A program made the translations under genes and the position numbers. Positions 4,879 to 39,859 of a DNA stretch of 64,000 nucleotides are shown one piece after another. Under the pieces are notes generated by a model. It searched no databases, had not been told where the DNA came from, and saw nothing but the letters and a program-made list of their open reading frames with translations. The stretch comes from a virus. Where the stretch lies: positions 118,847-182,846 of the IMG/VR virus record IMGVR_UViG_3300008117_000025, one strand, 5' to 3'. How positions within the stretch are numbered: position 1 is the first letter of the stretch; each line of letters starts with the position of its first letter.

Positions 4879-5997
4879 TTAAAATTTATTAATACCTGCT
4901 AACATTTGCCATCTAGCAACAGTATCGTTTACTTCAACGATTTGTTTTTTAGGGGCTACACCAGCAGCTTTAGAAGCAAATCCTAATGATTCTTTGATTG
5001 TGCTTTTCTTAGATTTTGCAATAGCACCATTCATTGATTCAAAAATAGCTTTAGCTTCTTTTGTAGTAGTTGCTTTATCGAATTGAGCAATTACTTTGAG
5101 TTTTTGTGATTCGTTCAAATTCTTAGCTTTGAAGATTTTGTTAACGTAAAGTAACTTAGCATTGAGTAAGTTAGTTTCGTTTAATTCGTTACGAAGAGCA
5201 TTGATAGTTTCAATTGCTTCTTTCATTTCTTTTTCATCTTCTTTTTTCTTCTTGTCGTCTTTTTTCTTAGCTTCGTACATATCATCTTTATCGTCGTCAG
5301 CTTCGTCTAAGGCATCAAGTTCAGCTAATAATTCTTCTAAATCGAAATCTTCTTCGATTTCTTCATCACCAGCTTCAGCGTCAACGTTTACAGCCACTTC
5401 ATCTTCACCACCCATGTTACCCATGTCAGCGCTCATATCACCCATTTCTGGGGCTTCGCCACTACCCATTTCGGCAGAGATAATGTCTTTGATAATGTCT
5501 TTCAATTCGTCAACTGTTAAGTCGGTAATTTTGTCGGCTTCTTCAGCTTCTTCTTCTTCGGATTCCTCTTCTTCAGATTCTTCCTCTTCAGATTCTTCTT
5601 CTTCGCCTTCTTCAGCTTCATCAAGATCTTCTTTATCTTCTTTTTTACCTTCTTCAAGTTCATCTTCTTTACTTAATTCAGCTAAAATTTCAGATAAATC
5701 GAAATCTTCTTCAAGCTCATCGTCGCCTTCTTCTAATGAGGCGTGTAATTTTCTAGCATTAACGCGTTGAATGTCATCGGTAGCATAGTTGTCTGTTCCG
5801 AGTTCCATTTCATCAAGCTCTTCCTTGTCTTTAGCTTCGTCTAAATCTTCATCCATTTCTTGTAACTTTGCAGCTAACATGGATTGAAGTTTTGGAGCAA
5901 GAGCTTCTTCAAGGGCAGCTTTAGCGTTTGCTAAGGCAGCTTCGCGAACGGCTTTAGCGTCGGCGATAGCCTCTTTGAATAAGTCTTTGTTTGACAT
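4879..5997 (-). CDS. Prohead core/scaffold protein; start revised to 5997 (MSNKDLF)
   Basis: Very acidic and coiled-coil, directly upstream of the capsid gene, with many LxE sites. AAGGAG lies 8 nt before the ATG at 5997. Confidence 0.75.
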   Translation of the reverse strand: MSNKDLFKEAIADAKAVREAALANAKAALEEALAPKLQSMLAAKLQEMDEDLDEAKDKEELDEMELGTDNYATDDIQRVNARKLHASLEEGDDELEEDFDLSEILAELSKEDELEEGKKEDKEDLDEAEEGEEEESEEEESEEEESEEEEAEEADKITDLTVDELKDIIKDIISAEMGSGEAPEMGDMSADMGNMGGEDEVAVNVDAEAGDEEIEEDFDLEELLAELDALDEADDDKDDMYEAKKKDDKKKKEDEKEMKEAIETINALRNELNETNLLNAKLLYVNKIFKAKNLNESQKLKVIAQFDKATTTKEAKAIFESMNGAIAKSKKSTIKESLGFASKAAGVAPKKQIVEVNDTVARWQMLAGINKF

Positions 5998-6147
5998 AAA
6001 ATTGTTCTCCTTAAATTTAATTGAGGAAATAAGATTATTAGGAAATCTTAATAGGGGGTTTGTAATATACCCAGGTTGCATAAAGAATGGGCAACCTATT
6101 TAGGATGCCCATAAATATATGTAGATATGTAAAAACGCAAACTGTTT

Positions 6148-6744
6148 TTAAACAGCTGCTATCTTTTGTGCTAGTGCTATTACCTCAGATGTTTTAAAAG
6201 CGGATAAACCACCTTCTAAGCCTTTAACTATGGCAGTATGTGCATCTACTGCTCCCATTCCACTTGATATAGCAGCAGCTGCTAATATAGCAGCATATAC
6301 ACCATGAGCAGCATCATATAATTGTGATGATTTATCTTGTACTTCTTGTCCTTTAAATTTTTTAGGAAAAGATTTTTGTAAAATAACACCGATGGCATCT
6401 ACGTATGCTTCTTCTAATTGATGACCCCAATGTTTAAGAGCATTACCTACTGCTGTTCCTTGTTTTTTATCTTTTTGAAAAATAGAAGCAATACCATTTA
6501 CAGCTTTACCAGCTAAATTTATTAATCCAGGAGCACCAGCAATTAGGCCTAAAGCTAAACCAGCGGCTTCATCAATTTCACCATCATTTGGAGATAATTG
6601 AACTGAGTTTGCTCCTGATTTAAGCATATTTAGTGCTAATTTTAGTCCTTGTTCAGCATCTTTATCAGCTACAGGATCAACTTGTTCGGCTTCAGTAATA
6701 ATACCGGCTAATTGTTGCCAACGTTTTGCTTCTTGTATTAACAT
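6148..6744 (-). CDS. Hypothetical head-associated protein; start revised to 6744 (MLIQEAKRWQQLAGI)
   Basis: Carries the RWQQLAGI motif and Ala/Gly-rich hydrophobic helices; lies between protease and scaffold. Confidence 0.7.
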   Translation of the reverse strand: MLIQEAKRWQQLAGIITEAEQVDPVADKDAEQGLKLALNMLKSGANSVQLSPNDGEIDEAAGLALGLIAGAPGLINLAGKAVNGIASIFQKDKKQGTAVGNALKHWGHQLEEAYVDAIGVILQKSFPKKFKGQEVQDKSSQLYDAAHGVYAAILAAAAISSGMGAVDAHTAIVKGLEGGLSAFKTSEVIALAQKIAAV

Positions 6745-7355
6745 AGTGGACATACTCCTGTTGCGTTACAAATAATTTCAGTTATTAAGCTATTTACTTT
6801 GCTATAATCTTTTATAGAACCAAATTTCTTTGACTCAGCTAATTGCATATATGCTTGTGGAGTTGAAGGTACTGATACTAGATCCCAACACAATAGTTCG
6901 AAATCATCTTGTACTTCAACTGTTTCGCCTAATTGCTTAACAGAGCCCATACCACGAGATGAAATACCAAGTGGAATACCAGACATTACTAATGCTTTAG
7001 CGATATTGCCTGAAGGTGTAGGTAATAATTGTAATTTACCCATTAAATCATTTCCTTTCCACCATACCTCAGTAATAACGTGGGAAGTATTTGCAAGGTT
7101 TACAACAGATGCTTCAGGATGATCGAGTTCTCCTAAGGCAGTACGTGTTTTTACTGGTCCATCTGTGTATTTTTTTACTTCTCTTTCAAGAATTTCGCGA
7201 GGATATACACGACCATTGCCATTCTTTTGCTCAGCTTCTTGTAATTTACCAACAAGGGTAACAAGGTTTTTACCTTCACCTAATTGTTTATTTTCAACAA
7301 TGGTTAGGTTTGCTGTTTGGAATGGAGTGTGATCTATTAATAATGATTTATTCAT
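6738..7355 (-). CDS. gp21: Prohead protease (T4 gp21-like)
   Basis: Motifs NGNGRVYPREIL, ALGELDHP, GISSRGMGSV and DFELLCWDLVSVPSTPQA. Confidence 0.95.
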   Translation of the reverse strand: MNKSLLIDHTPFQTANLTIVENKQLGEGKNLVTLVGKLQEAEQKNGNGRVYPREILEREVKKYTDGPVKTRTALGELDHPEASVVNLANTSHVITEVWWKGNDLMGKLQLLPTPSGNIAKALVMSGIPLGISSRGMGSVKQLGETVEVQDDFELLCWDLVSVPSTPQAYMQLAESKKFGSIKDYSKVNSLITEIICNATGVCPLC

Positions 7356-20976: not shown

Positions 20977-21507
20977 TTATGCTTCTGCTGGTGGTGGAGT
21001 TTCTTCGGCTGGCGCTTCAGGAGCTGGTTCTTCAGCTGGAGGTGTAGTTTCTGGAGCGCCTGCGGCTGCTGTAAATGCTTCAGCACCAGCATCAGCTTTA
21101 GGTGCTTCACCGCCACCTTCTTCTTTATCACCAACAGCATAATTTAATTCTAATAAATCAGCTATTCCTTGTTGTGCTCTTTCTAATTCACCTAATTGTT
21201 GCATATTATATCTCTTACCAGCTACTTTTGCTGTGTAATTTTTCTTGCCGTCATACACAATTGTGAATTCTTGTTCGTTAATTAATTTGAGGTTGAATGT
21301 AGTTGGTTTTGGAGCAACTAAATTAACTTCAGTAATAAAACGACCAAATGATGGAGACATTAAGTCTTCTACAATCTTTTTTAAACCAGGAAAACGATAT
21401 ATTAAATACATAGATTTAGCAGCACGTTGCTCTCTTGCTTCTTGTTCTGCTAGAGCTTTACGCACTGCCACTTTAATATATTTCTCTAATAATATTTTTT
21501 TACTCAC
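20977..21507 (-). CDS. Hypothetical tagged protein with Pro/Glu-rich tail
   Basis: N-terminal [18 protein letters not shown]. Confidence 0.7.
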
Positions 21508-21871
21508 TATCTGAATTTTGGCTATATTGGATTTCTTCCTCAGTTAGATATTCAGCTATACTATGCATATAATCTGAAGCTAAGGTAATATATGCTGATA
21601 CCCATCCAGGCAATTGTTGGTTGGGTTCAATTAATTGATATATTTTAGCAGCATTATTAACCATATCTCTTAATTCACTTTTAGCCATTGTAGCTTCGTG
21701 ATCTTGAGTTGGAGGCCAACTTAAGTGGCCTTCTCTCATCTTTTTAGCTATTGCTTGACGGCGCTTTAAAAGATATTTATCTGTCTTATCCTGTTTTCCA
21801 TCATTGTTGATGTCGGCATCTTCTTTGCCCACAGGATCAAGATTTTCTAATAAATCAATGAGTTTAATCAT
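21500..21871 (-). CDS. Tagged protein with EF-hand/dockerin-like loop
   Basis: MIKLIDLLE start; [14 protein letters not shown] loop. Confidence 0.65.
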
Positions 21872-23661: not shown

Positions 23662-26292
23662 TTATTTCTTTTTTTCGTTTATGTGTTTGCGTAGTAATTC
23701 TTTAAATTCTGTTAAGTGACTTGGATTGCGGTCAAAATATTCATTTACAATATAACGATGAATTTCTGCCAAATTACGTTGTTGTAAGGCTTGTAGTAAA
23801 TTAGCAGGTGAATCTAACCTTACTAGGGTATTCTGTATAATAAGGAAATGATTATTTCCAGGTTGGATTACAACAGATAATACATTTGTATTGTTATTTA
23901 ATCGAATATTATATATAGCACTTTGTCCACTTTCATATACTTGGTTAACCCTACCTCTTCCACCTATTAGATTTTGGCGGCGAGCAACACCTCTATTACC
24001 TACTGTAATACCTGGTAACCAGTTTCTTGGCCAGTTTCTTATTATGAAGTTAGCAGTAGTGAGAGTAGCAGGGATTCCAGCATTTTGAAAAATATCTCCT
24101 ATTCCAACTTCTCCTTCTGCAGGTGCAGCGGCTTGTTGAGGACGAGGAGCATTTGGTTGTCCTGCTGGTCTACCTCTTCTTGCAATACCACCTACTTGAG
24201 CAGCTATTTGACCAGCTGCTGGTTGTCCTTGTCCTAGTAATTGTCTTGCTAATGCGCTAGGTACATTTGCTTTAACTAATTTACCTGATTGATCAGATAC
24301 TTTAAAGCTATTTCTTGGATCTGCTGTGTTGATAAGTAAAGCAGTATTACCATTCATAGCTGGTTTGTATCTGTTAGTATCTGATACTGGTGGGTTGCTA
24401 GATATAAAGTCTTTTTTAGAGTTACCAATCATACTAAATCCTTGATTTCCTAATAGTGTAGTTAAATCATTATCATTGAATGTTTGATTTGTTGCTCTTA
24501 AATAAGCAAAATAGGATCTCCATTCATTAGCATCTAGACTAGTTGAGGTATTTCTGCTTCTCCAATTATTACCACTATAATCAGCAATTGATCTTTGTTG
24601 GCGTGGATTAATAGTAGCAGGCATTAATAAAAATGCTGATCTTTCACCAGAAGCCGTTAATACTACTGATGGGATATCCCCATATTGTACTATTCTTTGG
24701 TTATAAGGAATAGCATTAATAATCGATGTTAAAGCATCTTTATCTATAGTTGCAGGAATATTTCGTTCATCATCTCTAAATAAATTTAATGCATTTTGCT
24801 GGAATGATTCGTTATCTTTAGCATCAGTAAATGCTTGTTGTACTTCTTCATTATCAAAGGGAACTGATGTTATTTTTCCGTCTTCACCTACTTTATATGA
24901 AGAGAATGAGTTAGAATCTAATACAATTTCTCCACCTTCTACTGGTTTAACTATTAAGGCAGAATTTTCATCCTTTTTAGCATTGTCTAATATTTTTGTA
25001 ATTAAACTTCTATCAATAATTTCATCTTGAGCTAATTTCAATAGATTTCTTATAGGGATTTTATCTAGTTCTGGGTAGTCAATAAGATATTTTGATGTAC
25101 GTTTGTTTAATTTGATGTTGGGGAAATCATCTTCGGCTTGGTATAATCCTATTTTAATATCATCTCCCAATTCTAATTTAACTATAGTATCACCTTCTTT
25201 ATTAATATATACTCTTTCATCAGACTCTAAATACCATTTATTTAATTGAGTTATAAGTTTTTTAACATCAAATGGAATCTTTTCTTGCGAAAGGTATTTT
25301 AAAGGAATTTCATTTTGGAGATTTGCTGTTATTGATCTTCTAATTTGATTTGGGAACTTATCTAAATTTTTCAATAAAGTAACAGAATCAATAACACCAG
25401 GGGATTCAGCTATAAATTTAGCTAATTCAGGATATTTAGGTAAATATTTTTCTACAAATTCTTCATCACTAATATCAGAAAACAATTCATTACTTCTATT
25501 ATTTTTTCTAACTACTAAGTATTGTTGTTTTGCTGAAAAGGGGAATTTAGTCCATTCTCTATAACCTACAGATTGATTTCTGTATTGTTGGGTCATTTTT
25601 TCAGTTGAAGAAATAGGGATATACTTTAAAATAGATTTAATATTTGGTATATCTCTTAACCAAGGAACTTCACTTAACAACCCATCAAAATCCATTGGAT
25701 TTGATTCGTGAGGAGAATTTTTTCTATTTGTATAAACGTATCTTTCATTTTCATTAGTTGTTTTAGGATCTCTAACTTGAATAGCAACAAAACTTAATTT
25801 ATCGCCATCTGAAAGATTATTATTTTTTGCTAGATAAAATGTTGGATAAGATCTGTATGCACTATAACGATAGCTAGGGAATGAGGATCTAGTTATACAC
25901 CATTTTTCTCCATCACCGTATCTAATACAGTTATCTTGTTTACTACCATTATATATAACAATAGTATTATCGTCATTATGATATACAACATCTGGGGTGA
26001 TATCTAGTTCTTCAACACCTTCTTCACCTTTAGTTGCAGTAACTAATCTAATGAATTTAGCTATAGACCATTTATTTAAATCTCTTTGATCGCTAGGTAA
26101 TTTTTCCTTAATACGATCAAAAGTATTGATATATGCTCTTAATTGGTCATCTGTGATTTGAATATTAAGATCATCAGCTTCTTCTTGGAATCTTTTAATA
26201 AAACCTTTTATAGCGTTTTCGCCATAAGCTTCATTAAGCTCATTTTTCCAATTGTGTACAACGTGTAATATAAATCTATCTATATTTCTCAT
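23662..26292 (-). CDS. 876-aa multidomain protein; N-terminal module homologous to the repeats of 28814-32890
   Basis: LNEAYGENAI...YINTFDRIK...NCIRYGDGEKWCI aligns by eye with LKEYSEK...YIKRFDQIK...SCIKYGNGYSFCI. One RRGRP motif. Confidence 0.75.
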   Translation of the reverse strand: MRNIDRFILHVVHNWKNELNEAYGENAIKGFIKRFQEEADDLNIQITDDQLRAYINTFDRIKEKLPSDQRDLNKWSIAKFIRLVTATKGEEGVEELDITPDVVYHNDDNTIVIYNGSKQDNCIRYGDGEKWCITRSSFPSYRYSAYRSYPTFYLAKNNNLSDGDKLSFVAIQVRDPKTTNENERYVYTNRKNSPHESNPMDFDGLLSEVPWLRDIPNIKSILKYIPISSTEKMTQQYRNQSVGYREWTKFPFSAKQQYLVVRKNNRSNELFSDISDEEFVEKYLPKYPELAKFIAESPGVIDSVTLLKNLDKFPNQIRRSITANLQNEIPLKYLSQEKIPFDVKKLITQLNKWYLESDERVYINKEGDTIVKLELGDDIKIGLYQAEDDFPNIKLNKRTSKYLIDYPELDKIPIRNLLKLAQDEIIDRSLITKILDNAKKDENSALIVKPVEGGEIVLDSNSFSSYKVGEDGKITSVPFDNEEVQQAFTDAKDNESFQQNALNLFRDDERNIPATIDKDALTSIINAIPYNQRIVQYGDIPSVVLTASGERSAFLLMPATINPRQQRSIADYSGNNWRSRNTSTSLDANEWRSYFAYLRATNQTFNDNDLTTLLGNQGFSMIGNSKKDFISSNPPVSDTNRYKPAMNGNTALLINTADPRNSFKVSDQSGKLVKANVPSALARQLLGQGQPAAGQIAAQVGGIARRGRPAGQPNAPRPQQAAAPAEGEVGIGDIFQNAGIPATLTTANFIIRNWPRNWLPGITVGNRGVARRQNLIGGRGRVNQVYESGQSAIYNIRLNNNTNVLSVVIQPGNNHFLIIQNTLVRLDSPANLLQALQQRNLAEIHRYIVNEYFDRNPSHLTEFKELLRKHINEKKK

Positions 26293-26690
26293 TACTTTGT
26301 TTTACCCCATTTTTTACCCTTACCAGGATCTGAACATTGTGAAGGTGTTGGGCGGCAGGAAGGGTATTTTGCTCGCGTTTCACCTTTTTTACGGCCACAA
26401 GGTTTACATTTTTTCTTACCGTCTACCTCGCGACATGTATTACAATCAACCCAACCTCCTGTTTTACCAGGTGCACCTTTGCGTTTAAACCAAGTGCGAA
26501 GGGTTTCTTTTTTTTTCTCGTCTAATTGATCAATAAGTTCTTCTTTTAATCCTTTCCAAATATTACCTTTACGGCAACGTACAATAGCACCTGACTTATA
26601 GGCAGATGGCTTATCATATTTGCGATCGGCAATTCGTTTGCAACGATCTTCGTTAAGAATTTCTTTCGCTATGTCGGTTAATTTGATCAC
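26292..26690 (-). CDS. Tagged basic Cys-rich protein
   Basis: MIKLTDIAKEILNE start; 8 Cys; motifs SAYKSG, LRTWF and WVDC. Confidence 0.7.
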   Translation of the reverse strand: MIKLTDIAKEILNEDRCKRIADRKYDKPSAYKSGAIVRCRKGNIWKGLKEELIDQLDEKKKETLRTWFKRKGAPGKTGGWVDCNTCREVDGKKKCKPCGRKKGETRAKYPSCRPTPSQCSDPGKGKKWGKTK

Positions 26691-26693
26691 TTT

Positions 26694-27164
26694 TTATATA
26701 TTAAAAAAATATAATAATTGATTTTTCCCATTAATTTTGACCATCTCTAAATTATCTGTTGTTCCTGTATATCCTGCATTCATCATTGTATTGATGTTGT
26801 TCATGTTTCCTTTATATGCATCCTGTACACCTCTTATAAAATAGGATTCAACAAAATTATCTTGAAAATCTTCATGTTTAGGATGCCAATCTATAGCATC
26901 TTTATATAATTCATGAAGTATTTTAGGATTATTATCTAAAAAAACTATATATTCTACATCATTAGTTAATACCTTGTATGGTTTATTATCCCAATTCCAC
27001 TCAGAAATCCATTCATCTTCATTTTCATCTTCATCATACCCTATTAGATGTCCTAAATCTTGAACAATTAATTGTTTTAATATAGAAGATACCTCTGAAT
27101 TTTGTTGAAGTTGTCCTGTGGGGGATATTTCAAGTTCTTTTAATATGTCTAATAATTTAATCAT
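26694..27164 (-). CDS. Tagged hypothetical protein; start revised to 27164 (MIKLLDILKE)
   Basis: The tag begins 1 nt after the upstream stop. Confidence 0.7.
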   Translation of the reverse strand: MIKLLDILKELEISPTGQLQQNSEVSSILKQLIVQDLGHLIGYDEDENEDEWISEWNWDNKPYKVLTNDVEYIVFLDNNPKILHELYKDAIDWHPKHEDFQDNFVESYFIRGVQDAYKGNMNNINTMMNAGYTGTTDNLEMVKINGKNQLLYFFNI

Positions 27165-27165
27165 A

Positions 27166-27543
27166 TTACCATTTTCTGCAAGACCAATATCTTGCTTTTG
27201 TACGTGGTCCTGGGTTGGCACAGTTATGTCTTGCTCTAAAGGCAGCGCGGCGTTTAGGATTATTTTTCTTAATGTTCATTCCCTTAGCACCAAAGTTTAC
27301 TTTTACAACTTTACCTGTTTTAGGGTTTTTAACATATACCTTAAACTTTTTAGAATCACCACGCATTGGTTTACCTAATGGTACAGTACGACCTTGATAC
27401 TTAGCTTCTAACATGCAATCGCAATCAGCTTCGTTAAGTTCGTTTTGATATTCTTCCATGAATTGAACAAATTCTAAAATGTCTTGTTCATTTTCAACGT
27501 CGTACTCTTCTACTTCGTCTATTATTTCTAATAACTTAATCAT
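27166..27543 (-). CDS. Tagged basic protein with FRARHNC...RYWSC motif
   Basis: MIKLLEIIDE start; KVNFG...RRAAFRARHNC...KARYWSCRKW. Confidence 0.75.
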   Translation of the reverse strand: MIKLLEIIDEVEEYDVENEQDILEFVQFMEEYQNELNEADCDCMLEAKYQGRTVPLGKPMRGDSKKFKVYVKNPKTGKVVKVNFGAKGMNIKKNNPKRRAAFRARHNCANPGPRTKARYWSCRKW

Positions 27544-27652: not shown

Positions 27653-27886
27653 TTATTTTGAATGCCACCAATTACAACAATATTCGTCGGCAGCGACAGG
27701 TATTTTAGCATTACCATCACGCCACTGTAACCAATATTTGTTATTGCATAAATTGCCCTTTTCAACCCAATATTCACAGTTACCACACATTGAACCACCT
27801 TTAGTTACTTTCATACCGGGTTTATGATCTGAAGGGTATTCAATTTTACCTTCTTGGAGTTTAAGTAATTCAAGTAGGCTATGCAT
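27653..27886 (-). CDS. Tagged mini-protein with C-x2-C-x9-C-x22-CC metal-binding pattern
   Basis: MHSLLELLKLQE start; CGNCEYW...LC...YCCNWW. Confidence 0.65.
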   Translation of the reverse strand: MHSLLELLKLQEGKIEYPSDHKPGMKVTKGGSMCGNCEYWVEKGNLCNNKYWLQWRDGNAKIPVAADEYCCNWWHSK

Positions 27887-28813: not shown

Positions 28814-31800
28814 TTATTGATATATCTCGTTGTTTTGTTTGCCAAAATCTCTTAATAATATTCCTGCTTTAGCGTTTGCTTCGTTTTCAATTTCACTACC
28901 TGTTTTTCCACTTTCATAACTAATTCGTCCGTCTAAATTTTGTTTATGATGAACTAATTCATGTGCTAATGTTCTTAATATATCAGCCATGTTTCTATTC
29001 TTCACATAAACCCATATTTTATTATCATTCGGATCAAAATAACCAAAACTGCGTCTGTCTTTTACTTGATTAGTATCGTAGGAGAGGGTTAAGCTACGAG
29101 GAGGATTCTGGATTGCCAAATTTTTGCATGCATATTTTATAAATTCTCCAATAGTACCTGTTTCACTTTCGTCTAAACGTTGTAATTTAGATTTTAAACC
29201 TTCATTCATTAATTTTATTTTAGCTAATTCTTTTCTATATTCGTCTACTAATTGTTTAACTTCTTCCATATATTCTTTTAAAAGGCCTAATTCTTCAGAA
29301 TTTATATTCCAATCATTAAGAACATCTTTTAATGTAATTCCAGGAGGAGCAAGACTCATTAAAATATTATCAGCAAATTTTTTATATTCATCTTTTATAT
29401 CGCTTCCTGCTTTTACAATTCGGTTTTGTGATATATAAGAGGTTGCATATCTGTCCTCTTTTTTTACATATTTAAGTGTAGCTATAATTTTGTAAGATTT
29501 TATTTTACCACTTAAAATATCATCAATTTTATTATCAGCAGTTTTAATATATCTAAAAACATATTGTTTATCCCGAAATCCTTCTTGATAATTTTTACCA
29601 TTCTTATAATCGTAACTATCATTAAGATTACCTAATAAACTATTGTATTTTTTATCTAATTCATATTCTGCTTTTTCTTTAGGATCTACTTCTACATCTT
29701 TAAATATATTTTTTAAACCTTTAAGTCTAGGATACTTATCTTCTATATTCTTAAAGAAAGAATAGAAATCTTCCCCCGGATTATCAGCTGTTGTTACAGT
29801 GTAATGGTCTATCCCATTATCTGAATACATATTATAGTTAGCATCAACGAATTCCCCATTTGGGTCAGGATGGACAAATATTACTAATAGATGTGTTATA
29901 TCTACAAAATTTCCATTTTTATCTTGTTCAGATGATTTTGTATCATCAAATACAAAGTATGGTGTGCCACTTTCTTCATATCTATAATCATAATATAAAT
30001 TATCATCACCACGAGCTGAAATACAAAATGAATAGCCATTGCCATATTTAATACAGGCATTTTTAGTTTTACCTACATATATTCTTAATCCGTTTTGGTT
30101 ATAAACTAGATTAGCATCTTTACTAGGTTCACCATCATTTATTTTACCTGCCTTAATACGCTTTGGTTGATTAGCATCAACTGTAGTTTCTAAATCTTTC
30201 CAGTTATATTTAGTAATATCTTTTTCAGTTACTCTAGGACTATCCTTAATTTGACTAAAGCGATTAATATATGATTGAATAATATTTACTCCTAAATTAG
30301 GTTTTTCTTGTTGAAATTTAGCAGTTAAATCATTAACTAATTTGTTAGAATATTCATTGATAGAAGTTTCATTTATTAATTTTAACTTAAGTATTTCTCT
30401 ATCATATTTGTTTGATATTTCAATATAGGTTGATAAAATTTCTTCATGTTCATCATCGAGGGGTACCAATTTATATTCTAACTTTGGTGTTAGGTTTAAT
30501 TTTTTTACATTATCAATCCAACCACTTATATTTTTTTCAAATTCTTTTTCATTTTTAGCAACTGCATAATTTTTTTGAATAGTCATATATGGATTTAGTT
30601 GTCCGTTTTTTTTATCATAAGCTAATAATCGGTAAAAATATAATTGTAGTTCTCCTTTTAATAATTTAGTTGCTGTAGATTTACCACTCTTAGTATCTTT
30701 ACCACTTATAATACTCAATGCTGGGTATTCATCAAGAAGATTATCTAGTTTTTTTTCTTTTTGTCGTTCAAGATTATATATTTTAACATCAATATCACTA
30801 TCCCCTATAGGTTTATATTGTAATATATTTTTTAATCCATTAAGTTGGGGATATACTTCTGCCATTTCTTCAAAAGTACTAAAAAGCTCTTCACCAGCAT
30901 TGTTTGCTTCTGTAACAGAAAATGCTTCTCCTTCCTCAACCAATATTACCAATAAATGAGTAGGATCTATAAAACCATTTTTACCTTTATCACTAGATCT
31001 ACTATCATCAAATACAAAATATATAGATGCTGGGCCTGACTCTTCATATGATCCTTCTTCTGATCCTACTCTGTATCGAGCATATAAATTTCTTGAACCA
31101 CGAGCTGAAATGCAGAAACTATATCCATTACCATACTTTATACAGGATTTTTTAGATCCACCTTCATATACCCTAATATTATTTTGATTATATAGTAACT
31201 CAGCGTTAGTAACATCTCCATCATTTAATTTACCTGCTTTAATACGTTTTGATTGTAGATTATCTTTTATTGTATCTTCTAAATCACTCCATGAATATTG
31301 AAAAATATCACGTTTATTTGCAGATAAATTATTTTTAATCTGATCAAAACGTTTAATATATTCTTTTACCTGTTCAGTCGATAGTTCAGGATTTTCTTGT
31401 GTGAATTTGTCTGTTAGTTGGCTAATAACCTTTTCAGAATATTCTTTTAATGGTTCAGCAGGTGGTTGTTCAGCAGGAGCCGGTTCTGGTTTGGGTTCTT
31501 CTTTAGATTCTTTACCCATTGCTAATAGGAAATCAGCTACTTCAACACCATCAGGTAAGAATTTTTTAATTTCTTCCTCATTACCATCGCGTATTGCTTT
31601 TCTAAGATCAGTAGCATTTAAACCACCAAAATTACCAGCATCGAATATTTTTGCGTTAGAATATTTACTTAAATTTTTATATCTATCTTCTTCACCTTTA
31701 CCATAAGCAGCATATACTGTTACCTCAGGATTATTTTCTACAAAATCATATACATCTTTAACAGGTGTAACAGCTGATACTCTTATTTCTACTTTATCAC

Positions 31801-32890
31801 CGTCTACTAATTGGTCTTTGTATAATTCCCAAGCAGCAACACTCTCATCAGGTGAAATACCATCATGTATTTTAGGTGAAACTAATACTACTACTTGATC
31901 TGCTTTATTAAGTAATTGTTTTACTACACTAAAGTGACCTTTATGTGGTGGTTTGAATTTGCCTGGAAATAGTGCTATTGTTGTTTCACTTTGTTCAAGT
32001 AGCAATGATGCAATGTATCTACCTAGGTTAGTTTCACTTAGCATTGAATTTACTTTATCTAATGATTTTTGTTTATTATCGCCTTTTGGCGTATTTACTT
32101 CACCACTTTTAATAGATACCATCGAGTTAAAAACGCCTTTAATGCGGTTTTTAGAGCGTGGATTTTGTACCTTAGATGATATATTATTTAACAGTTCCTC
32201 GAAGCTACCGTCTATTTTGTAGTTGGTAAATAGCTTTTTGATATTAGACCAATTGCTAGTTTTCCATACTTCGGTACGATCAGTTTCTTTAAAATTATCT
32301 AACGTTACGATACGTAATGTTAAACCGGCGCTTGATAAGTTAAATTCATATTCTTGATTTGCTTCTAGTACAGGTACATTTTTTATACCCATACGAGCAA
32401 ATATTGATTTAGGATCTTCCTCTAGACATATTACCTTAGCTAATCCTAATAATAGTCCTTGTATTTCAGCAGGATAATCTAAAAATTCTTTCTTGAATTC
32501 AGCTTCATCATCACTAACAGAAACAATATTATCTATTTGAACGTATTGATCTGGTTGGTCTTCTATAGGATATAGTATGGTAATAATTTCACCTGTGTTG
32601 AGGTATTTTTTACCTTTATATTTTTCACTTTTAAAGGGAATAATAACGTCGTCTGGTAGTGCTGATAGGAATTTAGCTAGCTCTACTTTAATATTTTTCT
32701 TGTCTGTTGCTTCTAAATTAACAATTAAGTCAATATCACCAAAATCTTCTTTAGCGCTTGTATTATATGAACCTGAAATTTTAGCACTTTTAAAAGCAGG
32801 AAATTTCTTTAATATCCTGTTGATATAATTATCTGTTGTTTTAGCAACAGAAGCTCTAGTAATCCTATTTCCACCGGCTGATCCTGACAT
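28814..32890 (-). CDS. Polyvalent protein: Pol-beta-like NTase + HxGH nucleotidyltransferase + two repeats + HExxH metallopeptidase
   Basis: SGSYN...FGDIDL...VQID; ALFPGKFKPPHKGH; two YGNGYSFCISARG repeats; TLAHELVH...ENEANAKAG. Confidence 0.8.
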   Translation of the reverse strand: MSGSAGGNRITRASVAKTTDNYINRILKKFPAFKSAKISGSYNTSAKEDFGDIDLIVNLEATDKKNIKVELAKFLSALPDDVIIPFKSEKYKGKKYLNTGEIITILYPIEDQPDQYVQIDNIVSVSDDEAEFKKEFLDYPAEIQGLLLGLAKVICLEEDPKSIFARMGIKNVPVLEANQEYEFNLSSAGLTLRIVTLDNFKETDRTEVWKTSNWSNIKKLFTNYKIDGSFEELLNNISSKVQNPRSKNRIKGVFNSMVSIKSGEVNTPKGDNKQKSLDKVNSMLSETNLGRYIASLLLEQSETTIALFPGKFKPPHKGHFSVVKQLLNKADQVVVLVSPKIHDGISPDESVAAWELYKDQLVDGDKVEIRVSAVTPVKDVYDFVENNPEVTVYAAYGKGEEDRYKNLSKYSNAKIFDAGNFGGLNATDLRKAIRDGNEEEIKKFLPDGVEVADFLLAMGKESKEEPKPEPAPAEQPPAEPLKEYSEKVISQLTDKFTQENPELSTEQVKEYIKRFDQIKNNLSANKRDIFQYSWSDLEDTIKDNLQSKRIKAGKLNDGDVTNAELLYNQNNIRVYEGGSKKSCIKYGNGYSFCISARGSRNLYARYRVGSEEGSYEESGPASIYFVFDDSRSSDKGKNGFIDPTHLLVILVEEGEAFSVTEANNAGEELFSTFEEMAEVYPQLNGLKNILQYKPIGDSDIDVKIYNLERQKEKKLDNLLDEYPALSIISGKDTKSGKSTATKLLKGELQLYFYRLLAYDKKNGQLNPYMTIQKNYAVAKNEKEFEKNISGWIDNVKKLNLTPKLEYKLVPLDDEHEEILSTYIEISNKYDREILKLKLINETSINEYSNKLVNDLTAKFQQEKPNLGVNIIQSYINRFSQIKDSPRVTEKDITKYNWKDLETTVDANQPKRIKAGKINDGEPSKDANLVYNQNGLRIYVGKTKNACIKYGNGYSFCISARGDDNLYYDYRYEESGTPYFVFDDTKSSEQDKNGNFVDITHLLVIFVHPDPNGEFVDANYNMYSDNGIDHYTVTTADNPGEDFYSFFKNIEDKYPRLKGLKNIFKDVEVDPKEKAEYELDKKYNSLLGNLNDSYDYKNGKNYQEGFRDKQYVFRYIKTADNKIDDILSGKIKSYKIIATLKYVKKEDRYATSYISQNRIVKAGSDIKDEYKKFADNILMSLAPPGITLKDVLNDWNINSEELGLLKEYMEEVKQLVDEYRKELAKIKLMNEGLKSKLQRLDESETGTIGEFIKYACKNLAIQNPPRSLTLSYDTNQVKDRRSFGYFDPNDNKIWVYVKNRNMADILRTLAHELVHHKQNLDGRISYESGKTGSEIENEANAKAGILLRDFGKQNNEIYQ

Positions 32891-33861
32891 TATGCTTTTT
32901 CTTTTTGGTAAGGAATTAATTTAGAATTATCAGGTAAGAATTTACCTTTTAATCCTAGTCTATCTTGGTTATCAATCCAATATTTTTGTAAATTATCAGG
33001 TATATCTGCTCTAGTTGAGTCAAGTATTTTAAGATATCTATCCATAATAGAATTATATTCTTCTTTGGATATATTTTTTCTTATATAATCTTCTAATTTG
33101 AAATAATCATCAAGAATATCTTGAGTTAAATTAAAACCGTATAATTTATTTAATAGAGCGATTGCTTCTTTAGGATTAGATGCTTCCTGCTTACCTGTTT
33201 CCTTATCTAAAACACCAGTAGTATGACCAAATGTTTTACCTTTATTAGCAAATAAAGCTAACATTAATTGTGTACGATGTAATCCTTTAACATTGCCCTC
33301 ATATGATTGAGAATAATAACTAAAACGTAACCATTCAGGATTACCTACATTAATATCGGTTTGAACTGCTTTACCTACTTTTTCACCGTCAGGTCCGTAT
33401 TGAGGTATAGCACAAAATATAGAGCCGGCACCTGATGCTTTAAGATCAACTTCAACGTCAGGTAAAGCATCGTTAATTTTATCTCCAATCAATACAATCA
33501 TAGCACGTAATTGGAGTTTTTCAGGAGTAGCGGTTCTAGCTTTTTTAGTAAATTGAGCTAAAAGTTCATTATATTTGTTTTCATCTACACCCCAGCCTTT
33601 AAAGTCAGGTTTTCCACCAGGAAATATATTTTGAATATCATATGATAAATCAATATCACCTGACACGGCTTTTTTACCAGCAGATCCTAATTTTTCAAAT
33701 GCTTTAAACGTTGATGCCTTTGCAGGAAATATTTTAGATAATTGATCTACAAATTTTTCAATTGTAGGTTCAATATTGTCTTTTTCAATTGAATCGGTAG
33801 TACCAAATACATTACCACCTTCTAACAATATTTGTTTAGCTATTTTTAATAATTGGATCAT
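32890..33861 (-). CDS. Tagged Pol-beta-superfamily nucleotidyltransferase
   Basis: MIQLLKIAKQILLEG start; LGSAGKK..SGDIDL...VQTD. Confidence 0.75.
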   Translation of the reverse strand: MIQLLKIAKQILLEGGNVFGTTDSIEKDNIEPTIEKFVDQLSKIFPAKASTFKAFEKLGSAGKKAVSGDIDLSYDIQNIFPGGKPDFKGWGVDENKYNELLAQFTKKARTATPEKLQLRAMIVLIGDKINDALPDVEVDLKASGAGSIFCAIPQYGPDGEKVGKAVQTDINVGNPEWLRFSYYSQSYEGNVKGLHRTQLMLALFANKGKTFGHTTGVLDKETGKQEASNPKEAIALLNKLYGFNLTQDILDDYFKLEDYIRKNISKEEYNSIMDRYLKILDSTRADIPDNLQKYWIDNQDRLGLKGKFLPDNSKLIPYQKEKA

Positions 33862-33873
33862 AATTAAACATAA

Positions 33874-33904
33874 ATAGGCAGCTTGGACAGCCCAAGCTAC
33901 CTAT
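33874..33904 (-). terminator. 13-bp hairpin closing the TonB receptor/lipoprotein pair
   Basis: ATAGGTAGCTTGG/CCAAGCTGCCTAT (one G-U pair) followed by TTATGTTT. Confidence 0.65.
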
Positions 33905-33923
33905 AAATATTTGTTATTTTTGA

Positions 33924-35126
33924 TTATTGACCTTTAGCTGGGAAGCGTGTCCATCCATTTATCCATGATGGTCTAGCCAGAGCTTCCATCTCTAATTTAG
34001 TGTAATTTTTTTCAATATTACCTTCACCTAATGCTTTTGTTTTCATTTGAGATGCAGTAAATAATGTTGAAGTTGATTTAAAGTTTAATAATGGATCATA
34101 TGCTTGAATTTCATTATTTTCAAATTTACTAACACCATCTTTATAAGAGGTTGCTGTTTCATTTGATTCAATTGAAAATGCACCTTTTTGATATCCTAAT
34201 ATTTTAGAATTAGTAATCGTAAATTGTGTAGCACGTCTCCATCTTAAACCTAAGTTGTGATTAGCTAAAGCAGCAGCATCAAATGGACCAATTAATGTCA
34301 TTCCTACTAATTTAGGATGAGTAAATGGTTGAGCGGAAGATCCAACACCATCATTATCACATTCTACACCATTACCTGCATCTCCATTATCTACGAATTG
34401 AGGGTCACGCTTTGATACTCCATTTGTTACAGTTCCTGTATAACCAAAATCAAAATCATAATCATCATCTGCTGTTGCAAATGCATATAGGTTTTTAGGG
34501 GATACAGTACCACCAAAGAATTCAAATGCATCGTCGTTAGCATATACTGTTTGAACGTTTTCAATTATAGTACCTGAACCTACTCCACCTAATGTTAAAG
34601 CGTTAATTTCAGAGTTAGGTAAAGCAGCAACACCAGCATATTCAATACGAACATACTTTAATACACCACTATTGTCAGCATCATTAGTACCACCAAATGC
34701 TCTACCAATGCCGCCTTCAATAGTTGGTTCTGATGAGCGATTAGTTTTAGCGCGACCTAAAATTACAATACCACCCCAATCGCCAGGAGATCTCTCGCCA
34801 GCGTTTTTACCTGAGGTGAATATAATCGGTTTTGTAGATGTTCCTTCAGCAATGATTTGGGCTCCTCTTTCAATACACAAAGCACCTTTTTCAGCAATAT
34901 CGCTTACAATAGTGGTGCCAGGTTGAATAATAATTTTAGCTCCATCAGTTACATACACATATCCTTTTAAAGTCCATACCTTGTCTGATGTTAAGGTAAT
35001 AGTTGTGTTAATATTGCCATTAAGTACAGTGTTTGATGGTACATTGATAGGTCCATCTTCACCACCTAATTCTTTAGTGCAGGAAAATATCCCTACTAAT
35101 GCTAATAATGTTAATAGCTTTTTCAT
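33924..35126 (-). CDS. Bacteroidota-type surface lipoprotein, beta-helix-like, TonB-receptor associated
   Basis: Signal peptide and lipobox GIFSC; motifs GDWGGIVILG, DNSGVLKYVRIEYAG, NDDAFEFFGG and DDDYDFDFGY. Confidence 0.85.
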   Translation of the reverse strand: MKKLLTLLALVGIFSCTKELGGEDGPINVPSNTVLNGNINTTITLTSDKVWTLKGYVYVTDGAKIIIQPGTTIVSDIAEKGALCIERGAQIIAEGTSTKPIIFTSGKNAGERSPGDWGGIVILGRAKTNRSSEPTIEGGIGRAFGGTNDADNSGVLKYVRIEYAGVAALPNSEINALTLGGVGSGTIIENVQTVYANDDAFEFFGGTVSPKNLYAFATADDDYDFDFGYTGTVTNGVSKRDPQFVDNGDAGNGVECDNDGVGSSAQPFTHPKLVGMTLIGPFDAAALANHNLGLRWRRATQFTITNSKILGYQKGAFSIESNETATSYKDGVSKFENNEIQAYDPLLNFKSTSTLFTASQMKTKALGEGNIEKNYTKLEMEALARPSWINGWTRFPAKGQ

Positions 35127-37277
35127 AAATTAAGATTGATTGTTAATGAGATTGATTGTTCGTTGTTTGTTTTGATTAAATTACCTCTTGTTTTTTGGTA
35201 GTAGATAGATGGTTGCGCAAGTACATCACCTATTGCCAATTTGATTTCACCTTTATTTATCTTACGTAAGTAAACTAAGTCGATTATATCTCTAGAATTT
35301 TCAAATATATCAGCATACCCTTGGAATCCAACTGCTGATATTCTGTCTCCTACTCTATTATATGATACGTTTAATGTATTTTTATTTTTATGGAAATTTA
35401 AACCACTGTTAATAACGTATTTTGATTGGCCTTGTAATTGGCGTTTTATACCATTTACTTTAACTTCAGAATTAGTTAAAGCTGTATTTGTGTAAAAATC
35501 TAACCACTCATTTACTTTTTTACGAATTTCAAATTCAACACCATAAATTATAGCTGATTTGGGGTTGGTGAATTTCACCTGATTTAGGATAAAATTCATA
35601 TTTAAGATCTAAATTATAGATATCTGATTTTTCTAGATTAGGATTACCTAATAATTGGGCGTTTCTAACAAAATCATAATAAGCAAAGTTAGCTACTTCT
35701 CTAAATTCAGGACGAGATAATGTTTTGCTAGCTGATATGCGGTATTTGGTTTTATCTAAATTATAAGATAAATTTAATGATGGTAAAACATCTAAATATT
35801 TTCTATTTACATTTACTTTAGTACCGCTAAAATCAGCTGTATTGACATTAAATAGATTATATTCAGTTCTTAAACCAGTATTTAATTTCCATTTCCCAAA
35901 TTCATTATCGTACATTGCATATCCATTTGCTAAATCAAAATCAGCTACATACTTATCTGTATTGTTTGTGATTTCATTTAGCATATCTGCTGCTTCATAT
36001 CTGAATATTCTGGCTTTAAAGTTTCTTGTTCTTTTAAGGTATCCACCACCAACTTTAACTTTATTAAATGATTTATTTAAATTACCATTAAAGCTATTTT
36101 CATCCATTACACTCCAAAAACGGTATGTATCTCTCCAGGCTACAGCATAAGGTTCATTTATACTTAATGATTTTGTAATTGGATTTACTCTATAGTCAGG
36201 TTGATCACGTAACATTAAATTATAACCTAAGTTAAAATCTAATGTTTTAATTTTACCTTCAAATTGAGAATTTACAACAGTTTTAATAATGTGATTAGAA
36301 GCATTACTTCTTACATTTTGAACATTATCATAATTTTCACCATTACGAGTTAAATATGATTGTTCAATTTGATGATTAAATAATGTCTTTAAGCTATATT
36401 TATTTTTACCTGTATAAGTAATATTAGCTAAACCATTTAATAGTGTTGTTTTAGTAAATAGTGTATCTTTATACTTATATGCTAATTCGGTTGATGATTG
36501 ATAATCTTGTCTATCAATATAATTTAAAGAGTAAGTATTTCTAGCTGTGGAGCTAAATAAGAAATTCCAATTATTTTTCTTTAAACCAAAAGACAAAGAT
36601 CCATTTGTATTAGGAATAGATGTAAATTGTTTAGCCTGAGGAGAATTAATTAACTTAGTATATGCTCTTTTATCTCCATTACTGCTTATGCGGTATTTGT
36701 AAGTGGAAGGGAACATTGAAGGGAACTGAATAGATTCCACCAAGTTGAATTTTTGAGATGTAGACACCACTCCATAACTTGACCCCAGGCTTAAAGAAAA
36801 AAAATTGCTAGAAACATCTTTAGTAGCAATTTGAATAACACCACCAGCAAAATCTCCAGGCAAATTAGCAGTAGCCGATTTGGCTACAATTATATTGTCT
36901 ATTAATCCTGAAGGTATAATATCGAATGAGAATGCTCTGCGATCAGGTTCAGTTGATGGTAGGTAGGTTTTATTTAGTAAAGCTAAATTATATCTATCAG
37001 CTAAACCACGTACTAATACGAATTTATCGTTTTGAATTGTAACACCATTTACTCTTTTAAGAGCATCACCTACTGTACGATCTGGTGTTTTTTTAATAAA
37101 TTCAACTGATAGGCCATCAGAAATAACGGAGCTGTTCCTAATTGTGTTAAGAACAGCTACGTTGGTTTCTTTTTTAGTTACGGAACGAACCGTAATATTG
37201 TCTAATTTTTTGTTAAATAGTGTGTCTTGAGAAAATAAAAATACAGGACACAATAACAAGAATAATAAATGTTTCAA
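35123..37277 (-). pseudogene. TonB-dependent receptor split at about 35573/35572 into ORFs 35535-37277 and 35123-35599
   Basis: TTG start and signal peptide; plug motifs GDALKRVNGVT, VRGLADRYN and LPGDFAGGVIQI; barrel motifs LPSLNLSY, SRPEFRE and GNPNLEKS. The barrel resumes in another frame at FTNPKSA. Confidence 0.88.
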
Positions 37278-39056: not shown

Positions 39057-39488
39057 CTACAACAAGTCTTTAGTAAAGAATTTACCTAGTATATTATCAT
39101 TGTATGATCTGTCCTTTCCAATCAGAACTTCTTCTTTACACTGGAAATGCATTTCGTAATATGTTAATGCTTTTTTAGTTTTGCATTGTATTAGGATCCA
39201 ACGATCAAAATTTTCCTCGCCATATTCCTTAATATCAGTAAGTAATTGTTTATTAGACCCCCAATATTTTTGCCAATCGCTTTCAGTACGAATTATTTCG
39301 TGAGTTGGTTTGCGACCTGGGCCAGTTTGTTCAGCAAGTTGTTTTTTAGTGAGTTTGTGTTTTTTATTATTCCAAAACACTTTTTTACCAATATAAAATT
39401 TACCTGTTTTTAAATTGGTAATTTTATAAACAAAACCATAATATTTTTCGGGATTAGGTATATCCCAACTTTTCCACTTGTGTATCAT
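39057..39488 (-). CDS. GIY-YIG endonuclease (Seg-like)
   Basis: Motifs GFVYKITNLKTGKFYIGKK, YWGSN and YNDNI. Confidence 0.8.
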   Translation of the reverse strand: MIHKWKSWDIPNPEKYYGFVYKITNLKTGKFYIGKKVFWNNKKHKLTKKQLAEQTGPGRKPTHEIIRTESDWQKYWGSNKQLLTDIKEYGEENFDRWILIQCKTKKALTYYEMHFQCKEEVLIGKDRSYNDNILGKFFTKDLL

Positions 39489-39859
39489 ATTTCAACTATC
39501 CAAATAGATGGATCTATTCCTTTATTTATTAATCCTGACAGTCTGGTATTTCCAGCTAACAGATCATAGTCTTGATCATTAAATTTTACTGCTATAGGTA
39601 TTTCTACTTTATTTTGATAAAATGATTTATTAAATCTATCTTTTTTAGGTTCTTCTAATTTGTTAAAATTTAAATCTATATTACCTAATACATCTTTAAT
39701 TTTAGAATATTTTATAATGTATCCTTGATTAGCTATTTTTTTCCATTCCTCCTTTCCCATTTTTTTAAGTTCTGGATATCTGATAGCTTCTTCCCACTCA
39801 ATGTCGAAATTGGGTTTAGTGTATTTTATTTCTTTTAAAAGATTTAATAGCTTAATCAT
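39485..39859 (-). CDS. Tagged ParB/Srx-like domain protein
   Basis: MIKLLNLLKE start; IPIAV...DLLAGNTRL. Confidence 0.55.
   Translation of the reverse strand: MIKLLNLLKEIKYTKPNFDIEWEEAIRYPELKKMGKEEWKKIANQGYIIKYSKIKDVLGNIDLNFNKLEEPKKDRFNKSFYQNKVEIPIAVKFNDQDYDLLAGNTRLSGLINKGIDPSIWIVEI

Follow-up and report, generated by a model that had tools for sequence, protein, structure and literature searches.

Organisation of the open reading frame

The window, which is the whole stretch of 64,000 nucleotides that was analysed (positions 118,847 to 182,846 of IMG/VR record IMGVR_UViG_3300008117_000025), belongs to a 183-kb T4-like phage record with terminal repeats. Its minus strand carries a gene for a large multidomain protein, whose five segments had been proposed in a preliminary description and were all recovered in place, with positions 28814-32890 open for 1358 amino acids. 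The following features were assigned to this gene; the sites mentioned are (L/I)-x-E motifs.

28814..32890, minus strand: whole open reading frame (P0001), 1358 amino acids, putative polyvalent cargo polyprotein; 366 homologues with shuffled architectures
32033..32890, minus strand: module 1, residues 1-286, Pol-beta-superfamily nucleotidyltransferase, ending in the site LSE (284-286)
31994..32032, minus strand: residues 287-299, TNLGRYIASLLLE, tag-like peptide flanked by two sites
31442..31993, minus strand: module 2, residues 300-483, HIGH-superfamily adenylyltransferase (PPAT/NMNAT-like)
30368..31441, minus strand: module 3, residues 484-841, first copy of the R domain, final site INE (839-841)
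30353..30367, minus strand: residues 842-846 (TSINE), short spacer forming the second site of the R1/R2 joint
29168..30352, minus strand: module 4, residues 847-1241, second copy of the R domain, final site LDE (1239-1241)
28817..29167, minus strand: module 5, residues 1242-1358, minimal zincin metallopeptidase, Wss1/SprT/IrrE-like

Module 1 has a Pol-beta fold with the G[GS] loop, the DxD motif and, on its palm sheet, a third Asp; this fold is nearest to the palm and thumb of family X polymerases. Module 2 possesses HxGH, a second motif of the ISxTxxR type and a Rossmann-like fold (PF01467 score above the Pfam cut-off), and ends in a Pro/Glu-rich linker terminating in the site LKE (481-483). 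The zincin of module 5 shows HELVH at residue 1310 with ENEAN downstream, and both HExxH and the downstream Glu are kept in homologues. The domain folds of the polyprotein and the integrity of its active sites are established by this analysis, which bears out the earlier view of five modules with two unrelated nucleotidyl-transfer folds (Pol-beta and HIGH). The polyvalent character and the zincin that had been claimed were likewise found: a Pol-beta nucleotidyltransferase, a HIGH nucleotidyltransferase, two R domains and a zincin-like metallopeptidase (MPTase), the hub domain of polyvalent proteins, occur in a single phage open reading frame.

The fold of module 2 does not tell NMNAT from PPAT. 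A role as NMN adenylyltransferase in NAD salvage was considered and rejected, since a PF04095 profile search of the complete genome gave no match for NadV at E ≤ 0.01 (control positive in 9 of 14 genomes), and phages carrying NadM all have NadV (PMC9503650).

A search of phage records by DNA gave no match. At the protein level, phage records yielded the immuto phages, at 45% identity in modules 1, 2 and 5, plus a small number of distant matches.

Prohead protease, scaffold-like protein and capsid protein

It had been proposed that the domain junctions carry sites of the prohead-protease type. This was supported, and the genome encodes a protease of the T4 gp21 type together with a scaffold-like and a capsid protein.

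6738..7355, minus strand: T4 gp21-type prohead protease (Peptidase_S77), the proposed cutting enzyme; PF03420 117.5 bits, E 4.8e-35; phrog_207 E 5e-54
4879..6081, minus strand: acidic scaffold-like protein, 19 (L/I)xE sites in 400 amino acids
3228..4847, minus strand: major capsid protein, phrog_138 E 1.6e-72

In the major capsid protein, three (L/I)xE motifs lie within the first 50 residues and one in the remaining 490.

Number and position of the protease-site motifs

The 1358-aa protein contains 11 (L/I)xE motifs, compared to 17.5 ± 3.7 in shuffled sequences. Seven of them are distributed over the four joints, with motif starts at residues 284 and 297, at 481, at 839 and 844, and at 1239 and 1247. 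The other four start within modules (156, 650, 719 and 1204), where 15.5 were expected (Poisson P 6e-4). Of the 173 open reading frames of the genome (genome-wide observed/expected 1.22), this one is the most depleted; over the homologues as a whole the depletion is modest (observed/expected 0.89). Joint sites lie in low-confidence or coil segments (pLDDT below 50 at 294-301 and 464-480; coil at 841-848), and the interior ones sit within confidently modelled helices or strands. An additional site, IGE at 1247-1249, is located within the first helix of the zincin, which was modelled with confidence. The earlier statement that every junction carries (L/I)xE holds for all four joints, but not for the 'LMNE' quoted for the R2/zincin joint, which reads L-x-x-E or M-x-E; the true sites at this joint are LDE (1239-1241) and IGE.

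A motif with only two fixed positions might fall near domain borders by chance in a protein rich in K, E, L and I, and about 17 copies are expected at such a length and composition. This explanation was already disfavoured and is hardly credible, because seven of the 11 sites fall within 5% of the protein (binomial P 2e-7, with zones set post hoc around the domain borders), and because, among 3,800 patterns built in the same way ([ab].c), [IL].E (7 of 11) and [DE].S (5 of 14) alone reached all four joint zones. The sites are, in addition, conserved among homologues.

Conservation and module shuffling in homologues

The site at 297-299 was present in 76 of 76 distinct N-terminal halves of homologues, with L, N, A, P, F, S, V, Y or T at P2. 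Nearly every homologue has (L/I)xE ahead of the zincin, irrespective of the upstream domain. Conservation at the joints thus resembles the signature of a protease site, in which P3 and P1 are kept across deep divergence while P2 and the flanks vary; this argues against the motifs being relics, which should decay.

Comparison of homologues for domain shuffling at the junctions, which had been proposed as a check, gave a positive result, and modules exchange exactly at these joints. Homologues devoid of module 1 start one residue past the first site (LSE, 284-286) with the N-terminus MNLGQYLANI(L/I)LE, a 13-residue leader that matches residues 287-299. The same leader was also found at the N-terminus of other cargo combinations. 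The N-terminus of the polyprotein itself (MSGSAGGNRI...) is conserved in homologues, and the zincin is kept in all 120 homologues among the matches listed, whatever the other modules.

The R domain family

The two R copies (481-840 and 841-1235) share 46% identity over 265 residues (E 3e-68). The family comprises 633 representative clusters and consists mostly of stand-alone proteins, in which a leader of 6-25 residues ending in (L/I)xE was detected in 103 of 115 cases. At the leader site, P3 is L or I in 107 of 116 (92%) and P1 is Glu in 114 of 116 (98%), with P2 variable. The sequence INE|YS at the R1/R2 joint of the polyprotein aligns with this predicted leader cleavage position. A third, divergent R-like domain is located N-terminally in another protein of the window, preceded by a 21-residue leader whose last residues are LNE.

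23662..26292, minus strand: 876-aa protein with divergent R-like domain (profile match at 25852-26229, E 3.1e-12)

The second R copy was modelled by AlphaFold with a pLDDT of 89.5. Invariant residues are Cys946, Cys956, Phe979 and Asn1037 (numbering is alignment position plus 840); His1000 is invariant in one alignment (A4) and at least 90% conserved in another (A2). The invariant Cys, His and Asn in this order suggest, as a pattern of residues, that R may be a thiol enzyme. A Pfam search of 51 R members at E ≤ 0.1 gave no family, only scattered noise, and a PDB sequence search gave no relative, the top match being Cas9 (E 0.083, low-complexity helical part). Wide Foldseek searches (PDB and VIA) revealed no relative of R, and are weak for the R fold since their lists were filled by zincin matches. 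An atlas search by shape returned viral hypothetical clusters only, and one by features gave PBECR4 and PcfJ as weak leads (0.81-0.83, under the 0.9 level). An identity of R with PBECR4 or PcfJ was rejected, as the HMM profiles PF18813 and PF14284 had no match in the genome at E ≤ 10.

The retention of the zincin and of its HExxH and downstream Glu would also agree with self-processing, in which the joints are cleaved by the C-terminal zincin, be it cytoplasmically, within the head or once injected, and independently of the prohead protease. Autoproteolysis by MPTase-type domains was predicted, with the processing of P1 DdrB cited, in the available part of Iyer et al. 2017 (PMC5512222). The same (L/I)xE leader, however, precedes stand-alone R and other tagged proteins that have no zincin in cis. 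Moreover, the motif is the known rule of T4 gp21, and in this phage it also characterises the leader of the capsid protein as well as the scaffold-like protein; it would be a coincidence if a minimal Wss1/IrrE-like zincin shared a P3/P1 rule with a serine protease of family S77. Self-processing is therefore considered distinctly unlikely.

Portable tags and gene setting

At least eight unrelated open reading frames of the genome have a MIKLxDILKE-like N-terminal tag, which resembles the capsid-targeting sequence of T4, and show no similarity to each other past residue 15. In another phage with a homologous gene, the neighbours of this gene bear a tag of this type, too. A second common tag, MNFYxLYQxxNE, was found on two adjacent genes elsewhere. 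The polyprotein gene lies within a series of tagged genes, one of which is its upstream neighbour.

32890..33861, minus strand: upstream neighbour, 323 amino acids, overlapping the polyprotein start by one base (TAATG)

The tagged N-terminus of this 323-aa protein, MIQLLKIAKQILLE|GG, holds its sole (L/I)xE. The protein also possesses a Pol-beta motif (GSAGKK..GDIDLS), and its similarity to module 1 is merely suggestive (E 0.12). Tagging is not universal, since its homologue in the immuto phage, gp089, begins exactly past the tag position and is thus untagged. A leader of the T4 type (about 10 residues ending in (L/I)xE) is absent from the N-terminus of the polyprotein, MSGSAGGNRITRASVAK, in which the first site occurs at residue 156; here such a leader is confined to the internal peptide 287-299, the stand-alone relatives of modules 2-4 and the upstream neighbour. 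The gene lies about 14 kb upstream of the terminase gene, outside the head module, and in relatives it follows directly after primase/exonuclease-type genes.

The T4 late promoter TATAAATA gave 22 matches compared to 20.9 expected, which is no enrichment. The reverse word TATTTATA is located upstream of many minus-strand genes.

The missing N-terminal tag and the replication genes as neighbours would fit an unprocessed multi-enzyme, which acts at full length and is either packaged whole, like N4 vRNAP, or serves nucleotide metabolism in the cytoplasm early or midway in infection; the motifs would then be relics of ancestral tags or ordinary linker or helix-cap sequence. An annotated relative is named NMN adenylyltransferase, and N4 vRNAP, ArdC and TraC1 are transferred without processing according to the available text of PMC5512222. 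Relics, however, should decay, and yet P3 and P1 are kept; within-module sites are depleted, the gene stands in a run of tagged genes, and the NadV partner for NAD salvage is absent. We regard this explanation as unlikely.

Proposed processing and significance

We infer, with a probability of roughly 55%, that the 1358-aa protein is a polyvalent cargo polyprotein cut by the prohead protease, its packaging, cleavage, injection and substrates being predictions. What was observed is that the sites cluster and are conserved, that modules shuffle at them, that tags are portable and that the genome encodes the protease. The polyprotein would have arisen when head-cargo proteins, each with its own tag, were fused end to end, so that short, mostly unstructured linkers retain the (L/I)-x-E motif of the T4-type prohead protease and the first joint may preserve an entire former N-terminal tag. 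The precursor would enter the prohead core, where the gp21-like protease (6738-7355) may cut after Glu286, Glu299, Glu483, Glu841, Glu846, Glu1241 and possibly Glu1249. The released enzymes would remain in the head, enter the cell alongside the DNA and act ahead of any phage gene expression.

Several observations count against this explanation. Targeting of a precursor with an untagged N-terminus would need an internal tag or a partner, and we know of no precedent for capsid targeting by either. If cutting is done by the prohead protease, processing would not require the zincin, which is nevertheless kept in every listed homologue. Furthermore, the gene lies beside replication genes and the site 1247-1249 is in a confident helix.

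More tentatively, and with somewhat less confidence than is given to the polyprotein itself, it may be supposed that T4-like phages, probably of Bacteroidota, have a modular head cargo with portable prohead-site tags. Polyvalent proteins would then be fused tagged genes whose products are separated again by the protease, so that one gene delivers a set of enzymes at DNA entry, in this case a PolX-like transferase, an adenylyltransferase, an IrrE-like protease and R. If this is true, the capsid-targeting tag and gp21 processing of T4 would be joined with polyvalent proteins, which are treated separately in PMC9026906 and PMC5694885 on the one hand and in the available part of PMC5512222 on the other. 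The construction rule for polyvalent proteins would be to fuse tagged cargo genes and cut at (L/I)xE, and it would permit the prediction of injected proteins from sequence only in many uncultured large phages. R (633 clusters) would represent a large family of injected proteins that has had no name until now. The R family and the injected nucleotidyltransferases, including the one resembling family X polymerases, would be candidates for early counter-defence or DNA-end functions.

A cultured relative is Flavobacterium phage immuto (vB_FspM_immuto, homologue gp088; host Flavobacterium sp. LMO8), and mass spectrometry of its virions could therefore test the prediction. Virion proteomes and expression data of immuto-like phages were sought in the literature, and none were found.

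Comparison with known systems

As in the polyvalent proteins described by Iyer, Burroughs, Anand, de Souza and Aravind (2017, PMC5512222, available in part), disparate domains are joined in one polypeptide, a zincin MPTase is the recurring hub and the protein is phage-encoded; capsid packaging of the phage representatives and delivery with the DNA are predicted there. Pol-beta nucleotidyltransferase, 2H phosphoesterase and ParB-like modules occur within that family. The Pol-beta nucleotidyltransferases of PMC5512222 are, in the part available, minimal versions mainly from elements of Firmicutes, whereas module 1 is family-X-like with a thumb subdomain, and a term search of the available text gave no passage naming a HIGH-superfamily transferase. 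The joints differ as well: here they carry the motif recognised by the prohead protease that the phage itself encodes, along with what remains of N-terminal tags, while the paper, as far as available, has no account of joints of this kind and proposes autoproteolysis by the MPTase. P1 DdrB and N4 vRNAP, as covered in the same text, are likewise large packaged proteins with a zincin, and DdrB is processed prior to packaging; in contrast, N4 vRNAP stays uncut, and no prohead-protease motifs are evidenced at their domain borders in the available part.

In phiKZ-like giant phages (SPN3US, phiKZ, 201phi2-1; PMC5694885), head-internal proteins are also cut after Glu in a three-residue motif, sometimes at several sites, and paralogues have common N-terminal propeptides. 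Their motif, however, is (A/S/G)-x-E, and the cargo is mostly structural or of unknown function, with no description of enzymes linked in series with sites between them.

In T4 (IPI, IPII, IPIII and Alt; PMC9026906, PMC5694885), unrelated cargo proteins likewise bear short N-terminal (L/I)xE leaders and an S77 prohead protease is encoded as well; in T4 this enzyme, gp21, processes the cargo. The capsid-targeting sequence corresponds to residues 1-10 of IPIII, and processing is governed by residues 8 and 10 (PMC9026906). IPII and IPIII both start with MKTYQEFIAE, compared to MIKLxDILKE and MNLGQYLANILLE here, and this holds their sole (L/I)xE; the T4 internal proteins have exactly one such motif each, like the tagged upstream neighbour. 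T4 cargo is single-module with an N-terminal tag, whereas the polyprotein has five modules, internal sites and an untagged precursor N-terminus. T4 Alt, which is cleaved at ITE-6 and LTE-619 (PMC5694885), is a precedent for the packaging and injection of a large enzyme with trimming at both ends.

Genome context and module organization

The virus record is complete (182,846 bp, with direct terminal repeats), and the window forms its final 64 kb. The G+C content of the window is about 31%, and the minus strand carries nearly every gene. The polyprotein gene (28814-32890, minus strand) comprises 1358 open codons, and its start ATG shares one base (TAATG) with the stop of an upstream 323-codon ORF. 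In relatives, this gene comes after replication-type genes. The five-segment anatomy proposed in the preliminary description was borne out by Pfam, fold, repeat and zincin matches:

Residues 1-286: module 1, Pol-beta-superfamily nucleotidyltransferase (PolB)
Residues 300-462: module 2, compact HIGH-superfamily adenylyltransferase (HIGH)
Residues 481-840 and 841-1235: R1 and R2, the same domain twice (R)
Residues ~1240-1358: minimal zincin (MP), HELVH at 1310, ENEAN downstream

Module 1 gave only weak Pfam matches (Polbeta, E 0.012; DNA_pol_B_palm, E 0.034); Foldseek retrieved DNA polymerases beta and lambda (E about 5e-5, 220-240 columns; mean pLDDT of the AlphaFold model of residues 1-480, 84.4). 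G40-S41, D52, D54 and D120 are invariant in 34/34 homologues. Module 2 matched PF01467 (22.9 bits, cut-off 21) and phrog_395 (E 6e-7), and its HKGH (316-319) and second motif, (S/N)-A-T-x-x-R430, are kept in 38/38. The fold alone does not choose among NMN, NaMN, phosphopantetheine or another substrate. NadV, searched for as the partner of an NMN adenylyltransferase, was not found in the genome; a 2022 survey reported it in every NadM-carrying phage (PMC9503650). R1 and R2 share 46% identity across 265 residues (E 3e-68), and the zincin matched viral 'IrrE N-terminal-like' proteins (E 2.9e-10). With intact active sites in both transferases and an intact zincin motif, the modules probably have enzymatic activity.

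On the minus strand, the word TATTTATA occurs at 33902-33909 and in some ten further intergenic locations. It precedes many minus-strand gene starts by 14-41 nt, among them that of the operon containing the 323-aa gene and the polyprotein gene. It is promoter-like, with a total count not above that of shuffles. Between this word and the start of the 323-aa gene there is a GC-rich hairpin (AGCTTGG..CCAAGCT). A TonB-dependent-receptor-like protein (35535-37277, minus strand; Plug E 2e-8, OMP beta-barrel E 1e-18) and the product of the next gene downstream (33924-35126, minus strand), 400 aa long and bearing a lipoprotein-type signal (MKKLLTLLALVGIFSC), may form a phage-borne SusC/SusD-like outer-membrane pair.

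Prohead protease and (L/I)xE sites

A prohead protease and two neighbours rich in (L/I)xE (P3 Leu/Ile, P1 Glu), the cleavage motif of T4-type prohead proteases, are encoded in the window:

6738-7355: Peptidase_S77 (T4 gp21-type) protease, 117.5 bits
4879-6081, minus strand: acidic scaffold-like protein, 400 aa, adjoining the protease gene, 19 (L/I)xE
7357-9243, minus strand: 628-aa protein next to the protease, starting MKSIANQYRDLKE, 10 (L/I)xE

The latter two are likely prohead core proteins. In the major capsid protein, three (L/I)xE lie within residues 1-50 and a single one in the remaining 490. Given these leader sites and the 19 sites of the acidic protein, the motif fits the phage's own maturation substrates.

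The polyprotein contains 11 (L/I)xE (17.5 +/- 3.7 in shuffles) and is the most depleted of 173 ORFs (genome-wide observed/expected 1.22). Seven of the 11 fall at the four joints (284 and 297; 481; 839 and 844; 1239 and 1247), in agreement with the earlier claim of sites at every junction; only 'LMNE', then listed as a joint site, does not match, the actual sites there being LDE and IGE. Inside the modules, 15.5 would be expected and four occur (Poisson P 6e-4). Of 3,800 similarly built patterns, just [IL].E (7/11 occurrences) and [DE].S (5/14) matched all four joint zones. In predicted models, low-confidence linkers hold the joint sites (pLDDT <50 at 294-301 and 464-480; coil where R2 begins), and confident helices or strands hold the interior ones.

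Module exchange among homologues

A search of 5.8 billion proteins yielded 366 matches of 750-1540 residues. When the five modules were mapped onto the best 120 of the 366, free shuffling was found, with the zincin kept in all 120.

Architectures of the polyprotein and its homologues
PolB-HIGH-R-R-MP
PolB-HIGH-R-MP
PolB-HIGH-X-R-MP
PolB-HIGH-X-MP
PolB-HIGH-MP-Y
HIGH-X-R-MP
R-R-MP

Further fused modules are an Acb1-like 2H phosphoesterase, DUF3892, DUF6934 and DUF5661. Four lines of evidence show that the breakpoints coincide with the sites, as expected for shuffling precisely at xE junctions; the fourth, the leaders of stand-alone R proteins, is described below with the R family. The second site of joint 1 is kept in 76/76 distinct sequences, with L, N, A, P, F, S, V, Y or T as middle residue. 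Nearly every homologue has (L/I)xE 50-70 residues ahead of HExxH, whichever domain precedes; the exceptions have M or V at P3. Homologues without module 1 begin MNLGQYLANI(L/I)LE, which corresponds to residues 287-299 of the polyprotein and starts one residue past its first site; the same leader heads X-R-MP and R-R-MP proteins. A polyprotein that undergoes no processing is unlikely, as this would explain neither the conservation of P3 and P1 beside variable P2 and flanks nor the depletion of sites within modules.

Two large metagenomic proteins (P0196, P0257) have an N-terminal zincin, next an Acb1-like 2H phosphoesterase (PF13563, E 1e-6 to 2e-9; PF23474, E 1e-5) and then an R domain; R and zincin are here combined with what is likely an anti-cyclic-nucleotide enzyme.

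Portable N-terminal tags

At least eight ORFs of the genome begin with near-identical leaders of the MIKLxDILKE type ending in (L/I)xE (MKLIDILKE, MIKLIDLLE, MIKLLDILKE, MIKLLEIIDE, MIKLLNLLKE, MLKLIDILKE, MIQLLKIAKQILLE and MHSLLELLKLQE); past residue 15, no similarity is detectable among them.

Tagged ORFs, window: 21500-21871, 26694-27164, 27166-27543, 27653-27886, 32890-33861, 39485-39859, 54461-55291
Tagged ORF outside the window: genome 118447-118827

Four of these genes flank the polyprotein gene. The upstream 323-residue neighbour has a Pol-beta motif, and its sole (L/I)xE sits in the tag; its homologue in Flavobacterium phage immuto lacks the tag, and its first residue coincides with the predicted mature end. 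The polyprotein homologue of a related phage is itself tagged (MNLGQYLANIILE); the genes on either side encode a P-loop kinase headed by MIKLLDLLLE and a protein headed by MIKLIDILRE. A more distant phage has a common start, MNFY(E/K)LYQ(L/I)xNE, on a stand-alone R gene and the unrelated gene beside it. Self-processing by the zincin, in line with the autoproteolysis predicted for polyvalent proteins in general (PMC5512222), is considered less probable still than no processing; it leaves the same leaders on zincin-less proteins unexplained.

On a related 145-kb phage contig (L011; 3222-4004, 6514-6993), a tagged Zeta-toxin/AAA_33-type P-loop kinase lies directly upstream of a HIGH-X-R-MP gene, in place of the 323-aa gene and module 1. 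Its position beside the HIGH transferase recalls the NadR arrangement.

The R domain family

Profile searches with R yielded 633 representative clusters; most of these proteins are stand-alone and 350-500 residues long. In 103/115, the domain has a 6-25-residue leader in front of it, and the aligned site has L/I at P3 in 107/116, a variable P2 and Glu at P1 in 114/116. Pfam and PDB searches found no relative; weak atlas leads (PBECR4, PcfJ) failed to hold in follow-up HMM searches. Cys946, Cys956, Phe979 and Asn1037 do not vary across the 116 aligned sequences, and His1000 is invariant among 51 sequences and at least 90% conserved among the 116. The order Cys, His, Asn is reminiscent of thiol hydrolases, which is a guess. 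A divergent third copy was detected in the window:

23662-26292, minus strand: 876-aa protein, 21-residue leader ending in LNE, then R (profile E 3e-12)

The long part of this protein that follows, in which one stretch is rich in Gln, Ala, Pro and Gly, matched no family. A 132-aa protein (26292-26690, minus strand) matched DUF5872 (E 1e-7) and shares an 'IALDHLxE.P.YY'-like motif with the 628-aa protein and some R-bearing metagenomic N-termini (P0123, P0228, P0060).

Proposed processing and comparison with known systems

We consider it somewhat probable (about 0.55) that the polyprotein is head cargo: tagged cargo genes would have been joined in evolution, and the prohead protease would cut the product at the retained sites. 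Cleavage would release a PolX-like transferase (1-286), a tag peptide of 13 residues, the adenylyltransferase (300-483), R1, R2 and the zincin. Against head cargo stands the precursor's own N-terminus, which has no tag; the replication-type gene context, the ever-present zincin and the untagged immuto neighbour homologue do not fit either.

Both polyvalent proteins and the T4 route of tag plus protease are already known. In the literature consulted, the combination seen here was not found: joints composed of former tags and prohead-protease sites, gene fusion and fission right at such sites, putative cargo that includes a PolX-like module and a HIGH transferase, and the large R family. The MIKLxDILKE-type tag resembles the T4 capsid-targeting sequence: IPII and IPIII begin with MKTYQEFIAE and IPI contains ...STITE, and none of the three has another (L/I)xE. 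Capsid targeting needs no more than the first ten residues of IPIII, of which residues 8 and 10 control processing (PMC9026906), and T4 Alt is cleaved at ITE-6 and LTE-619 (PMC5694885).
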